Positions 33,001-39,000 of a stretch of 44,947 bases of DNA are shown one piece after another. How positions within the stretch are numbered: the first letter of the stretch is position 1; each line of letters opens with the position of its first letter. Position numbers: made by a program. The stretch is from an uncultured Methanosarcinales archaeon (GTDB taxonomy: Archaea; Nanobdellota; Nanobdellia; Woesearchaeales; CAZYIM01), in the NCBI GenBank assembly GCA_964647565.1, contig CAZYIM010000021.1, positions 1-44,947 on the forward strand, written 5' to 3'.

Positions 33001-36000
33001 AGTTCTAGCTCATCACCCACATCATCAAAATACTTATCTAACTTTGTACCTTTGAATAAAGCCATAGTAGAATCAGACAGAAATTGATAAATCTCATTTT
33101 CTAAACCCAATTGTTCAAATGTCATTTGATCTCCTATAATATCTTTTGCGAACTTTTCTCTAAGACCATATATTCCTGAATCATTTTGTTTTAATATAGT
33201 GGTTGTTTGAACTGTTGGAACAAGAAGATATGATTTTGACGGGGTGACAACAATTTCACAAGCACGATTTCCTTGGGGCCTATTCAAATAAGTGTCAAAC
33301 AAAAGGGAATAAAGATCCTTGCCCATCGCCATCGGTGACTCAGTAGGGTGTGTATGAATCCCTATGGTGGCGCGTAATTCCCCTTCATTTTCAGGATCAT
33401 CAGGAAATAAGAATGTATCGCAAGCAACCCTCACAAGATTTCCTGAGTCATCCAATTCAGGAAGTTCAGATCTTTTTATATTGCCTGCTCGCCAATCTGA
33501 CGCATGTTCAGATAAGAATAATTTCCTATAAAACTCCATAAATTTCCATCTTTGTTCTGGATCTTTTTTCAAATCATAATTCTCAAGAAATTTTAGAGAT
33601 AACCTGTCTTTTAAGGAAGGATTCCGAAGGAACCGTTCCCATCTTTTTCTCAATCCAGAAAGGGAATTCGAAATTATAGAATCCGCTAAGTTTAATTCCT
33701 TAGGTAAAGCTCCTTTTTCAGAGTATTTATGATGCTTCACAATATCTTCTATAGCTGATAAAAATTGTATTGAAGTAAAACTATTTGACATATTGAATTA
33801 GGGTAAAATGTATTTATAAAGTTTTCGTTTATTAACCATTTAGAAGTAACAAAAATGCCCCGAGCGGGAATTTCGTCTTGAGACAAAAGCCTTGTTGACT
33901 TTCTCATCAAGTATTCGAACCCACGTCATTGCCTTTCTCTAACCTTTTGGTTGCGAGAGGGCAATATGATTGGCCGGACTACACCATCGGGGCATATTTG
34001 ATTGTTAGTTTTTTTTTGTGTGGGCTTGAGTGTTAGCGAAACCCACTTCGCTGTCGATGGGCGAAAGCATCGGACTTTGCACCATCGGGGCATCAAAAGT
34101 CCTATGATATTACATGACATTGTGATCTCTGGCAAGGGCTTCTACAGACCGGTCAAAGGTCGCTTCTCCTTCTTTTGAGAAGAAACATCCAGGAACCTCT
34201 CCATTAGCCCTGTGAAATTCTACACACTCTGAGCATTTCCCGTGTCTTGAACAGCCAGGATATGTACAGGTGCATTCAATACTGTTATCGCATGTCATGG
34301 ATGGGCTCAGAGGGACATTCGCATCATGAGTTTGCACTCGATGACTTTCGAACCCCCGACCCCTTGGTTACTTTTAAAACAAAGTTAAACTTTGTTTATT
34401 AAGAGCCAAGTGCTCTAGCCAGGCTGAGCTATGAGCCCATTTTAACTGTGAAACTTATATCATATTTAAAAGCTTTTCCTTAGAAAAACAACTTTTCAAT
34501 GTCTTCTAGCAACTGTACAAACCTATCATACCCTCTTTGTGCTCCAAAGTGATCTGCATCCTTAACCATGATTAGTTCAGAACCTAAGTTTGCAGCAAGT
34601 TCTTCCCCTTTCTTAACAGGAACATATGGATCGTCTGTAGATTGGTAAATAACAAACTTAGAACAGTTCTCCTTAATCTTAGCCCAGTCAAAATCCCTTT
34701 CAGCAAGAGTCTTATTTACAGCATCATAATCTATGTGCAGCGGACCCGTAAATCCTGCAACAAGGAAGCAACATTTAGGTTTCACATCAAGAAGCTCAAT
34801 AACATCCAATACAAATGCGCATCCAACACTGTGTGCAATAATGATAGAGTCATCTAACTTATTATTATATATAGAGATCACTTTCAGCCAGTTGTCTAGA
34901 TTCTGTTGTTCATAACCAGGAAATTGCGGAACATAAACCTCATGACCGAGCTTCTCCAACTTTGCTTTCAACCATTGGAACCAGTGTTCATCAGGATTTC
35001 CATTGGTCCCATGTATGATAAAGGTGTTCATAGAAGTAAATTAAAAAAAAGAAATATAAAAATTTATTTGTTTAGAAGCTGTATTCCATGATTACACCGG
35101 CGTAGAGCTCATCCTGTATGTTTCTTTTGTCTAGCGACTTGGAGAATGAGATGGCAGGTGTTACACTAAGATTGCCGAAATTAATTGGGATTTTGACATT
35201 CAGTTCTGCATGGCTAAATCCGCTGTTTTCCCGGAAATAGTGGTGGTTATATCCTAGCTTTGCACTTATAGATAATGGGAACTTCTCGAAGTCATGGTCT
35301 GCTGAAATTTCTCCATATACTCCATCTCCTTCTTTGAAGTCGTAAACAATACTCATGCTCGGACTCAATAGGGTATCGAGAGAAACCGCTACATAAACTT
35401 CCTGGCTTTTTGCATTGATATCGGGGAAGGTCAGGTATGCATAACCTGCAGATACTGACACGTTCTCGCTCACTAGCATTGTATAGTCCGCAATGATGTC
35501 AGCTTCATTTATTTCTTTTGTGTCGGTCTTATAACTTCCAAAGCCTATGACTGTCAAGTTTTTGTATGTACCACTTACAGTTGGCTGCAATATTGGTTTC
35601 TCTGAGAAGGTCAGACCTCTGAACATGTGTTTGCTCATTGCATCTACCCGCGTACAGAATTCCATCTGGGATTTTGCTTCTTCTTTTTCCTGACTGATTC
35701 CGGGTCTAGCAATAGCTAATCCTCCAAGTAGGATTGCAGTCATTATGGTTTTCATTAGTTTCATTTTTTCACCTGTTTTGTTTTTACTTACTAGTAGTAC
35801 ATTATCTATTCATTATATATAATTTATCTCCCCTGTACGGGGTGTATAATAGAAAGATTTTTATATAATAAAGACATTAATAGCTGAATGACAGAAAATC
35901 CCTTATATGATCTACTAAAGATAGGCCTGACTGAAGGTGAGGCGAAGGTGTACATTGCAATGATAGAGCTGGGTTCATCCACAGTTGGCCCGATAGTAAA

Positions 36001-39000
36001 GAAATCAGGAGTGGCCTACTCGAATGTTTATGATATCCTAAACAGGCTTATGGATAAAGGCGTAGCTACTTATATATTGAAGAGTAAGACAAAATATTTC
36101 CAAGCAGTATCTCCTTCCAACCTCTTAGTGTATCTGGAAAAAAAAGAAGCTGAACTAAATCAGCAAAAGAAAGCTCTTAAAAAGGCATTACCTCAGTTGG
36201 AGAGCTTGCAGGAATTTAAAGCCAAACAAGAGGCTGAAATATTTGTGGGCAAAAAGGGGTTAAGAGCTGCATATGAGAAACTCTTTACAACTGTAAACAA
36301 AGACGAAGAAGATCTTTTTTTCTATATCTACCATCCTGAATACGGAAAGGAAGCTGACCTTTTTTATTTAAGTATCCAGGAGATCATAAAAAAATTACCA
36401 ATCAGGGGGATCTCAAACACAGAGGGTAGGGAATCTTTGTTTGCACAGTCAGTTGATTTTATCAGATATAGATTTGTTGATTTTCCCATTCCAGGCAATC
36501 TTGAGGTGTGTGGTGATAAGACGCTGTTTGTGTCCTGGGAAAAGCCAACCATCGGAGTACTCATTACATCCAAGAGCATCGCAGATAACCTGCGTAACTA
36601 TTTCGATACTGTTTGGGTTATTGCCAAAGAATAGTTGATTTAATTCTTGTCTAGCAACTTTTTATCATTGAAAATAATGACATTTAATATACATTTTACT
36701 ATACTAATTGTCCAAAAATTGTACCTAGTATGGTAAAATTACCGAAAACTATATAAATAACTTAATTTAAAAGTAATCTATGAATGAAACTCAGATAACG
36801 GTAACGGAAGCGCATATGGGGGATGAGCTTAGGAAACATGGATTTCTAAAAGAATCGATTGAATCCATTCAAAGTGCTCAACCTGACAGTAAACCACAAC
36901 TAACGCAACATGAAGAACTATTGATTGAACTTAACCAGAAGTTTGTCAGATTCAAAGATATGCATACTGCTAGAGTAGATGAACTTGCTAAGAAGTTGAC
37001 TCTTGCATATGAGCAAATAGCTAAGTTGCAAGCAAATATTAAGGAAATTGGAGATAAAGGATCCACACTCGTGGAAAAAGAGGTGAGTGAGGCTTCTTGT
37101 GCCGAAAAAGTCTCGCCAAAACAAGCCATTGAACCCAAAAAGAAACCCTACTATCAGAAACAGGGAAAATTTAATCCGGGAGATATAGATATTAATGAGA
37201 TATTCTATTTCGGCAATAGGAAAAGATAGGTTCCACGCGGGCACAAGAAGTTATCCATGGCTGGGCGCTTAGGCGCCTGGTTCTTTTTTTTTCTACGGTC
37301 AATTTTCACTAGACATGTCTACGCAGCACTTATAAATCCATATTCTTTTATTAATTTATGATCAGAGAGTCTTTTATTCTTTTAGACAGTATTAGGCAGA
37401 AGAGAGAACAGATGATCTGGCAGCAGGACATAAAGGATTGGAACCAGTTTCTAGACAAAGAAAAAATCAAGGGTATATCACCTTTAAGAAAATCTTTCTA
37501 CAACAGACAGCTTGAGCTCTCAAGAAAGGCCCTGCTCAATGAAAATGCATCTTTCTTCTCAAAAAAACTCCCGCATCAGGAATACTGGCGTCTCTATAAT
37601 GAATTCAAAGAAGACGCTGTTTTTCTGGATATCGAAACAACAAGCTCTTATGGAGGTATCACAATTATTGGTCTATATGATGGAGAAGATACAAAGACCT
37701 TCATAAGAGGTCGAAACCTTGACAAAAAAATATTACAAAAAGTTATTTCCAACTACAAACTGATACTAACCTTTAATGACAGCAGCTTTGACATACCGAT
37801 CATAAATAAATACTTTGCAAATGTAATACCTAAAGAGATCCCACACATTGACTTAAGACATGTCTGTTCAAAGATCCATCTTACAGGGGGTCTTAAATCA
37901 ATAGAAAAACAAATAGGCATCAAAAGACCTTCAGATGTTGAATTAGTCAACGGTGAAGAAGCAGTCCGTTTATGGGATCTTTACTGGGCAACAGGTGATG
38001 ATTACTACCTTAATCTCTTGGTAAAATATAATGAGGAAGACATAATAAATCTCAAACCAGTGGCAGATTTCGCCATCAAGCAGTTGTGGCTGAAAACACG
38101 TAATTTGTGCTCAAAACCCCCTATTTTAGGCAAAAATTTATAAATAAGCGCCTCTCAATTAAGCTTAAGGAGTGGTTAAGCACGGATTTTTTGCTTGTTA
38201 CTCGATTTTTCAACAAAGTGAGGAGGTACGAAAATGGCAGAAGGATATTGTGTAAAATGTAAGGCAAAGAGGGAAATGAATAATGCCGAAGAAGTTACCA
38301 TGAAGAACGGCCGAAGAGCAATGAAGGGTAAATGCTCAAAGTGTGGCTGTGGCATGTACAAGATCTTGGGAAAATAAATTTTTTTTTAAATTATATTTAA
38401 CAGTGCCCACTGCAAATTGACATAGTTTTTGTTTGTAGGGGCACACGTTCCCTCATTCTTCAGAAAAAAATTACGCTTCCTCTTCTTCGTTCTCTTCTGT
38501 AGCAATTAGAGAACATTCATCAGAACATGCACTTGCAAGTAAATTTGGAGAAGTCTTTTTAGGATAAAAACAAAATCCTTTGAAATTATATGGACATTCT
38601 TTTTCCATTTTATTATCTCCGTATCTTAGTATAATTTTTTGTATACTAGTATTTGATATTAAACACTACTGATATATAAATTTTTCGTTTTTTACTTAAA
38701 AAATATACAACCCCCGACTATAAAACAATAAACTGCTGAAATATATAAATTTTACTAATTCATCCACAACAAGCTTTAAATAAATTCCTTACTTTCTCTA
38801 AATGAATTACATCGGGTGGTAATATAAATATGAAGCTAGAAGAGATTACAGCTAGAAAAAAGATCGGAGCGGGAAGATCGGCGCAAGTCTTTCATGTGCA
38901 AGAATCAACTGGCCAGGAGTTGGCTATAAAGGTTTTCACAGGCGAGGAAGGCATTGCGAAATTTGTCAACTATATATTTACAGGCGGCCCATTAATCTAT

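Follow-up and report, generated by a model that had tools for sequence, protein, structure and literature searches.

For the TrmB-like proteins, the largest of three regulator families lying head-to-head with a partner gene throughout this archaeal genome, we consider it probable that regulator and promoters form cartridges with private palindromes, likely partner activation, contact to the own promoter and replaceable cargo. The evidence comes from sequence analysis of gene arrangement, operator position, helix-operator covariation and partner turnover. According to this model, such cartridges would exist as a library in Woese/Pacearchaeota (Nanoarchaeota-type) archaea. In each, a dimeric winged-helix protein would read a palindrome dictated by the residues that open its recognition helix; the palindrome lies about 15 bp upstream of the outward TATA box, directly next to a sub-consensus BRE. 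The regulator would most likely activate its partner by aiding TFB/TBP binding; the genome has a single TFB (contig C15).

Fresh gene calls (2688 genes), made independently of the first-pass annotation, recovered the three expanded families described there, i.e., 37 TrmB-like, 22 AbrB-like and 11 tandem-Lrp proteins, and confirm the head-to-head arrangement. Divergent from the upstream gene are 35 of 37 TrmB-like genes (36, as claimed before, once a missed 204-aa ORF is restored) and all 11 tandem-Lrp genes, while the AbrB family reaches 20 of 22 instead of the reported 21, with one gene co-oriented and one at a contig end. Pooled over the families, 67 of 69 regulators diverge from their partner. 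The excess previously noted holds, but its baseline of 31% (816/2601 genes with an upstream neighbor in the fresh calls) is unsuitable as a null because it includes operon-internal genes; among first genes of transcription units, 45–60% are divergent, and the regulators still lie above a null of 54% (p = 6e-16). Median spacers of 104 bp (TrmB) and 110 bp (tandem-Lrp) agree with the proposed value of roughly 110 bp, whereas the AbrB spacers are longer (145 bp). Likewise, the palindrome excess attributed to the spacers of all families is carried by the TrmB family (21/32, compared to 7/19 for AbrB, 1/7 for Lrp and 61/223 controls). Two of the 37 TrmB-like proteins, C10_15 and C10_58, are conserved TrmBL2-like proteins and not cassettes, one being co-oriented and the other 456 bp away from cdc6.

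The example cassette lies in a contig stretch of 44,947 nt (the window) and is, as annotated, a TrmB-HTH gene facing the gene of a beta-barrel-like secreted protein, with 123 bp between the 248-aa regulator and the 230-aa signal-peptide partner. Its elements are:

35072..35764, minus strand: partner, secreted TorF/Gcw_chp-like beta-barrel-type protein, 230 aa, with signal peptide (PF09694, E = 1.1e-5)
35770..35775, minus strand: Shine-Dalgarno-like site of the partner, from sequence
35785..35796, no strand: YACT-N4-AGTR copy, a genome-wide palindrome (sequence reading, motif statistics)
35813..35829, minus strand: partner promoter with sub-consensus BRE and TATA box (sequence reading)
35830..35842, no strand: predicted palindromic operator, cassette-specific, family consensus CCCTGTACAGGG, with at most 2 mismatches in 98/108 relatives
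35852..35868, plus strand: regulator BRE-TATA, fitting the genome's leaderless promoter profile and kept in relatives
35888..36634, plus strand: leaderless regulator of TrmBL2 architecture (winged HTH, coiled coil, PLD-like C-domain), 248 aa (PF01978, E = 2.5e-17)

The partner ends in a C-terminal Phe and scores 0.97 to TorF-like clusters in the atlas. The center of the operator precedes the partner TATA box by about 15 bp, and the two near copies of this operator elsewhere in the genome are both within genes. The YACT-N4-AGTR copy, just upstream of the predicted partner start site, is possibly a second, global control site. Four further cassettes are found in the window:

836..2098: AbrB-PhoU-like, regulator 836-1708 (minus), partner 1859-2098 (plus)
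9550..11210: second TrmB cassette, regulator 10521-11210 (plus), orphan partner 9550-10425 (minus), operator 10469-10489
12210..13471: third TrmB cassette, regulator 12210-12956 (minus), partner 13043-13471 (plus), operator 12986-13009
41628..42970: AbrB-PhoU-like, regulator 42131-42970 (plus), partner 41628-42005 (minus)

The PF01978 winged HTH is detected above the Pfam cut-off in all 37 TrmB-like proteins. The structure predicted for the window regulator (pLDDT 93.5) matches TrmBL2 best (Foldseek E = 5e-14 to 5bpd), followed by NucT/Nuc, and the full-length HMM also matches TrmBL2. The two-domain TrmBL2-type fold with PLD-like C-domain is present, including a predicted coiled-coil dimerization helix (residues 78-109) and a recognition-helix tyrosine, Y48, nearly invariant in the family. 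In contrast, the second effector subdomain, in which the available text of PMC4158304 places the sugar-binding residues of TrmB, is absent, as the proteins stop at about 245 aa. Scores are low for the sugar-sensing TrmB/TrmBL1 equivalogs (NCBIfam, 37–47 bits versus cut-offs of 600–650) and the TrmBL2 chromatin-protein equivalog (23.9 versus 530 bits), and the catalytic PLD motif occurs in only 1 of 141 C-domains. Nonspecific, TrmBL2-style binding would hardly fit these proteins, given that specific predicted operators covary with the helix.

A palindrome 11–18 bp upstream of the partner TATA box is found in 20 of 34 TrmB promoters compared to 19 of 467 controls, while the next windows upstream in the same promoters show palindromes in 2/34 and 1/34; 14/34 promoters stay below the score threshold. 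TATA boxes and start codons are predictions, some of them mis-anchored. Two outward BREs mimicking a palindrome were ruled out as artefact by matched controls with back-to-back TATA boxes (17/27 versus 25/374). In relatives, 50 of 90 promoters bear the palindrome, whereas windows shifted upstream contain 5 and 3; palindromes are also present in the downstream windows (13/90 and 21/90). The operator offset to the partner TATA box is 14.5–15.5 in 68 of 95 cases, a peak favored by selecting the operator within a 12–17 window. Distances to the regulator start, by contrast, are trimodal, i.e., the operator is fixed relative to the outward TATA box rather than to that of the regulator. Its inner arm extends to about –6, overlapping the BRE edge, and 24 of 30 operators lack a second intergenic copy.

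Moreover, operator similarity correlates with that of six helix residues (Mantel r = 0.39, p = 0.0005, n = 34), with a signal peak at residues 43-44, the start of helix 4 in the predicted model; helix 4 is the TrmB recognition helix in the available text of PMC4158304. The same residues predict held-out operators in other genomes (top quartile in 46/64 versus 17/64 for a control window), the correlation persists among 4150 pairs of less than 36% identity (r = 0.42), and "RR" helices go along with CCAC arms in 10/10 versus 5/84 cases. One control window also gave r = 0.12 (p = 0.04), and C-domain similarity correlates with operator similarity as well (r = 0.19–0.25; held-out 28/64), showing that shared ancestry contributes. 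Hence, these sequence comparisons suggest that the operator of a TrmB-like regulator, and presumably its binding, is set by the first recognition-helix residues.

With regard to the outcome of binding, partner activation combined with autoregulation of the CopR/TFB-RF1 type appears most likely, as judged from the promoter sequences. A palindrome at fixed distance directly upstream of the BRE, a hallmark of TFB-recruiting activators, is present, and the partner BRE is weaker than those of the regulators (p = 4e-6; paired p = 1e-7 in the window subfamily, including the window cassette itself) and of leaderless promoters (p = 5e-4), but not significantly weaker than in leadered control promoters (p = 0.15). 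The regulator would contact its own leaderless promoter from about 11, 42 or 51 bp before the start, thereby damping its own expression, except from the position at about 51 bp. Rather unlikely, though the strongest competitor, is that the same specific binding serves inducible repression, with the regulators blocking TFB at the partner BRE until a putative C-domain ligand frees them. The overlap with the upstream BRE edge is what a repressor site would show, P. furiosus TrmB represses malE from a BRE/TATA site (available text of PMC4158304), and the C-domains vary more than the HTH, like sensor domains. However, the operator keeps its distance to the partner to within about 1 bp while that to the regulator varies, which would fit stereospecific contact better than occlusion, and the sub-consensus partner BRE, the missing sugar-binding subdomain and C-domains not tracking partner type in genome G022 (rho = 0.05) likewise speak against repression. 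N- and C-domains stay associated in 62 of the 78 close pairs; the 16 exceptions may reflect domain shuffling.

The target of the presumed activation is not fixed. In the subfamily of the window regulator, the operator is kept in 98 of 108 relatives while 51 partner families are fronted among 109 partners, and conservation stops at the end of the partner TATA box, which argues for regulator, operator and two promoters as the conserved unit with exchangeable cargo. The regulator gene plus the TATA-to-TATA segment would thus persist while the gene past the outward promoter is often replaced. A partner homologous to the window's TorF/Gcw_chp-like protein occurs in only 8 of 108 relatives; the commonest one (34/108, 110–135 aa) is assigned neither by Pfam nor by the atlas. 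A regulator 84% identical to that of the second window cassette occurs in genome G016, where the operator is unchanged but the partner is unrelated. A search of genome contigs with a single-protein query gave no match. The regulation layer proposed earlier is retained, but not as a speciality of this DPANN genome: across 120 further genomes of the phylum, the TrmB-like family turns up in 78, with up to 28 copies. A "dedicated" target finds no evolutionary support, since of the 71 close TrmB pairs between genomes just 2 have a partner in common.

This low number (AbrB 3/21, Lrp 1/11), together with mixed partner functions including NDK and NreA, would also suit a purely autoregulatory operator with the partner being a chance gene behind a bidirectional promoter. 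We consider this improbable since the operator is anchored to the outward TATA box, recurrence is seen in 10.8% of pairs for upstream partners versus 0.3% for downstream neighbors, one binding-protein family stands behind 20 of 28 regulators in G022, and swivel-His genes are enriched in partner units (10/66 versus 9/684 other divergent units), confirming the ten cassettes previously listed, albeit as first gene in three only. Whole-cassette duplication as origin of the 20 G022 cassettes was ruled out by their scatter over the regulator tree (17 changes versus 17.2 when shuffled; single clade rejected at p-AU = 5e-6; quick trees). Least probable of all are true mobile elements moved and reloaded by a dedicated recombination system: regulators of 78–84% identity in different families with unrelated partners, the abrupt stop of conservation at the partner TATA box and the spread of the G022 cassettes would agree with them, but the cassettes are unclustered (14/70 versus 15.1 expected, also excluding integron-like arrays), no conserved flank extends past the promoter in the upstream profile, viral matches, and with them viral carriage, are limited to two weak and partial ones, and normal reshuffling of gene order in these lineages could produce equal turnover.

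Returning to the cartridge model, the other two families probably share this layout, using putative AT-rich sites. One-regulator/one-promoter local control, as postulated for all three, finds support in the TrmB-like family from where the operators lie, their covariation with the helix and their uniqueness, and weak support in AbrB-PhoU (r = 0.09, p = 0.03) and tandem Lrp (r = 0.21, p = 0.02); TrmB-type palindromes upstream of the partner TATA box occur in 3/20 and 0/10 cases, respectively. An AbrB/MazE N-domain is found in 19 of 22 proteins (PF04014, E ≤ 0.01), while matches of the C-domain to PhoU, assigned before by inspection, are weak (PF01895 in 3/22, one above cut-off; top three Foldseek rows PhoU at E = 0.11–0.23; E = 0.4 against solved structures), and no phosphate transport families were detected in the 21 upstream neighbors scanned. 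Two stretches matching at least one of HTH_AsnC, HTH_24 and AsnC_trans_reg are present in all 11 tandem-Lrp proteins. More tentatively, all three unrelated folds could have converged on a DPANN phylum-wide pool of orthogonal, horizontally traded, re-fillable expression cartridges (activator, private operator and strong outward promoter) also gated by one global start-site factor. If so, newly acquired or duplicated genes, e.g., for surface barrels, the 20 binding-protein paralogs or swivel-His kinase modules, would each obtain a separate on/off channel.

Sequence alone provides hundreds of natural regulator-operator pairs and a readable TrmB winged-helix code. For the geometry of activation in archaea it yields a precise model open to testing, and for archaeal genetics a collection of orthogonal switches ready for use. 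Regulatory modules outliving their targets also caution against names such as "sugar-specific TrmB" and against inferring signals from neighbors. In the mainly open-access literature searched, no paper was found on these regulators in DPANN or on gene regulation in Woese/Pacearchaeota. Bacterial LysR/TetR-type pairs are likewise head-to-head, with the operator in the common spacer and large paralog families, and are typically recognized by conserved linkage to one target, whereas TrmB-like cassettes keep operator and promoter while the target changes. Among archaeal systems, P. furiosus CopR, as described in the available text of PMC7830388, binds between divergent promoters, stimulating copA and repressing copR; its site is flanked by the two TBP/TFB sites and immediately precedes the BRE. 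This geometry is shared by the cassettes, for which activation of the partner and self-repression would be equivalent. CopR, however, is a lone regulator whose copper regulon is fixed and spans several promoters, in contrast to the dozens of paralogous regulators here, whose operators are private and mostly single-copy and whose partners change. TFB-RF1 (PF1088) also binds a palindrome that precedes a weak BRE at a conserved distance and has a very small regulon, but is, according to the available portion of PMC5937170, co-transcribed with its target, has targets conserved across Thermococcales and demonstrably recruits TFB, which the cassette regulators are only presumed to do. With TrmBL2 (PDB 5bpd/5box; TrmB family 3qph), the cassette regulators share winged HTH, coiled coil, PLD-like domain and length, and with the TrmB family the conserved recognition-helix tyrosine (available text of PMC4158304); in the sources at hand, TrmBL2 is a chromatin protein on coding and intergenic DNA and TrmB carries the sugar-binding subdomain, whereas the cassette regulators have specific predicted operators and lack this subdomain. 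Finally, P. furiosus possesses 8 TrmB-family members (PMC6316755), compared to 37 in the present genome.

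Divergent orientation is a property of all three regulator families. The assembly (2.68 Mb in 86 contigs, completeness 87%, the window being contig C21) comprises 2688 genes predicted by an own hexamer model, with approximate start positions. All-against-all BLAST and HMMs identified among them 37 TrmB-like, 22 AbrB-like and 11 tandem-Lrp genes, reproducing the family sizes of the first-pass annotation. The head-to-head arrangement claimed there was likewise found for 36/37 TrmB-like genes (once a missed ORF was included) and 11/11 Lrp genes, whereas for the AbrB-like family the value is 20/22 instead of 21/22, one gene being co-oriented and one located at a contig end. 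The 31% baseline used for comparison proved too low, as the share of divergent cases among first genes of transcription units is 45-60%, varying with the gap threshold chosen; the 67 divergent cases among 69 regulators are still far above this range. A 96-member protein cluster of the same genome (median 265 aa) is hardly ever divergent from the upstream gene. In the window, the arrangement is represented by a cassette with a 123-bp spacer:

35072-35764, minus strand, barrel-like partner
35785-35796, copy of the palindrome YACT-N4-AGTR
35888-36634, plus strand, TrmB-like regulator

Upstream neighbors lack a Pfam match at E≤0.01 in 38 of 69 cases, and the others are diverse (methyltransferases, binding proteins, NUDIX, NDK and three swivel-His proteins). 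Swivel-His genes were indeed recovered in 10 cassettes, at a frequency of 10/66 partner units versus 9/684 other units. One AbrB-like gene (L039:1501-2403), lying opposite a unit with three swivel-His genes, is interrupted in frame by a TAA following codon 66. Barrel proteins of bacterial type are unusual for an archaeon. A crude screen for outer-membrane-type barrels (signal-like N-terminus, Phe/Trp at the C-terminus) gave 13 proteins, four of which are TrmB partners:

35072-35764 of the window
L018:545-1357
L029:1960-2589
L007:382-1335

From the regulator start towards the partner, the TrmB spacers contain first the TATA and BRE of the regulator, then the palindrome, then the BRE and TATA of the partner, and finally a start region and a ribosome site. 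A palindrome (score ≥7) centered 11-18 bp upstream of the partner TATA is present in 20/34 TrmB cassettes versus 19/467 control promoters, and in 17/27 versus 25/374 when controls were matched for back-to-back TATA geometry. By the same scoring, it was found at this position in 3/20 AbrB and 0/10 Lrp cassettes. Of the 111 TrmB loci of relatives (weak loci L095-L099 having been excluded beforehand), three were dropped (N-terminus or start missing); the remainder comprises 94 divergent and 6 co-oriented loci, with 4 uncalled and 4 at edges. Here, the palindrome lies at 12-17 bp in 50/90, compared to 5 and 3 for windows farther upstream and 13 and 21 for downstream windows, and after re-anchoring the operator-partner TATA offset is 14.5-15.5 in 68/95. 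Distances from operator to regulator start fall into classes of 8-13, 39-44 and 47-53 (14, 19 and 28 of 64, respectively). In the first class, both directions seem to share a single AT box, and the operator overlies the regulator start region.

For the subfamily of the window regulator, 160 public loci were reduced to 143 by removing 16 duplicates and one without start, and to 108 by a <90% identity filter. Of the 143, 124 are divergent, 7 co-oriented, 4 uncalled and 8 at edges. The window-type operator (≤2 mismatches) occurs in 98/108 relatives, in 88 of these 98 at 13-15 bp from the partner TATA, and conservation extends from TATA to TATA, beyond which it is at background level up to the ribosome site. 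The partners belong to 51 families among 109, with a small orphan in 34, a barrel-like protein in 9 (window counted) and a binding protein in 6, while downstream neighbors represent 87 families among 98. As partners are common to 10.8% of pairs versus 0.3% for downstream genes, the regulator-partner link is real but loose. The commonest partner (L292:116-505 and 33 similar loci) is a small helical orphan of 110-135 aa, for which no Pfam or atlas assignment was obtained.

Across genomes, only 2 of 71 TrmB regulator pairs (≥45% identity) have the same partner, and one 84%-identical pair has kept the operator while facing unrelated partners. In the related genome G022, 20/28 regulators face one periplasmic-binding-protein family, and these cassettes are spread across the regulator tree (G000, the own genome, and G022 rows only, midpoint root) with 17 changes versus a shuffled mean of 17.2, at least eight of them forced by strong branches; a single clade is rejected (p-AU 5e-6). 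Within the G022 loci L102-L128, the twenty periplasmic-binding lipoproteins are diverged, with a median identity of 25%, each having a different TrmB-like regulator.

Operator similarity correlates with six residues of the recognition helix (r 0.39, p 0.0005, n = 34), most strongly at residues 43-44, compared to 0.03, 0.12 and 0.02 for control windows and 0.19 for the C-domain. With 30 operators of the own genome as training set (score ≥6, after removal of one that was mis-anchored), nearest-helix prediction placed the relatives' operator in the top quartile in 46/64 cases, compared to 17 for a control window and 28 for the C-domain. Where Arg occupies residue 44, outer ACA arms are frequent (72/114 half-sites versus 5/74), and where it is absent, inner arms tend to be G-rich (47/74 versus 14/114); 'RR' helices are associated with CCAC arms (10/10 versus 5/84). 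Related sequences are not independent of one another, but for pairs <36% identical r is 0.42. A second intergenic copy (≤1 mismatch, equal spacing) is missing for 24/30 operators.

YACT-N4-AGTR, which resembles published TrmB motifs, has 98 intergenic copies genome-wide versus 11.6 expected in one count, and 104 intergenic versus 59 coding copies in another, and looks like the site of a global regulator; the two TrmBL2-like proteins of contig C10 are candidate binders. About 22 bp upstream of TATA (center 20-24), it was counted in 59/1339 other promoters and in none of the 35 TrmB partners. Since it is found about 22 bp downstream of TATA in 8/35 partners versus 10/1339 other promoters, the motif pattern suggests that a global factor may gate the partners. 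In relatives' spacers it is rarer (7/90).

Relatives' AbrB loci are divergent in 55 cases, 4 being co-oriented, 4 uncalled, 4 at edges and 1 dropped; for Lrp, the values are 22, 2, 2, 1 and 1. The same partner was found in 3/21 AbrB and 1/11 Lrp pairs, and spacer-to-domain covariation is weak in both families. Four AbrB-like genes on contigs C2, C7, C19 and C30 (L046, L038, L040, L049) carry the same leader hairpin and, between it and the start codon, a conserved stretch; among the loci retrieved from relatives, this arrangement was not found. The TrmB-like, AbrB and Lrp families are present in 28, 28 and 24, respectively, of 31 genomes (counting the own one), and the TrmB-like family in 78/120 other genomes of the phylum, a per-genome count of 23 being a lower bound. 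Named close homologs of the window regulator are labeled Woesearchaeota, Pacearchaeota, Nanoarchaeota or 'archaeon', and subfamily record titles, as deposited, also Aenigmatarchaeota, Micrarchaeota and, for some bins, 'Methanosarcinales' or 'Nitrososphaeraceae'.

The fixed partner-side offset, together with partner BREs weaker than regulator BREs, makes it fairly probable that the regulator activates the partner promoter. Against activation count that partner BREs do not differ from leadered controls (p 0.15) and that the operator overlaps the BRE edge. The regulator fold is predicted to be TrmBL2-type with a PLD-like, non-catalytic C-domain. Some TrmB-like regulators combine one HTH with several repeated C-domains (L007:1486-3510, 675 aa; L137 and L174 of relatives, 654 and 517 aa).

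A literature search retrieved no description of a set of orthogonal cartridges that spans a phylum, has a readable code and carries exchangeable cargo; every single element of the cassette system has precedent. According to excerpts of the respective papers, TrmBL1-type proteins activate from sites upstream of BRE/TATA and repress from downstream ones (PMC4158304), TFB-RF1 works from upstream of a weak BRE, its distance to which is conserved (PMC5937170), and CopR works from a site between divergent promoters (PMC7830388). In contrast to TrmB, as described in the excerpt of PMC4158304, the regulators studied here do not possess the sugar-binding subdomain, and hence a ligand is only putative.
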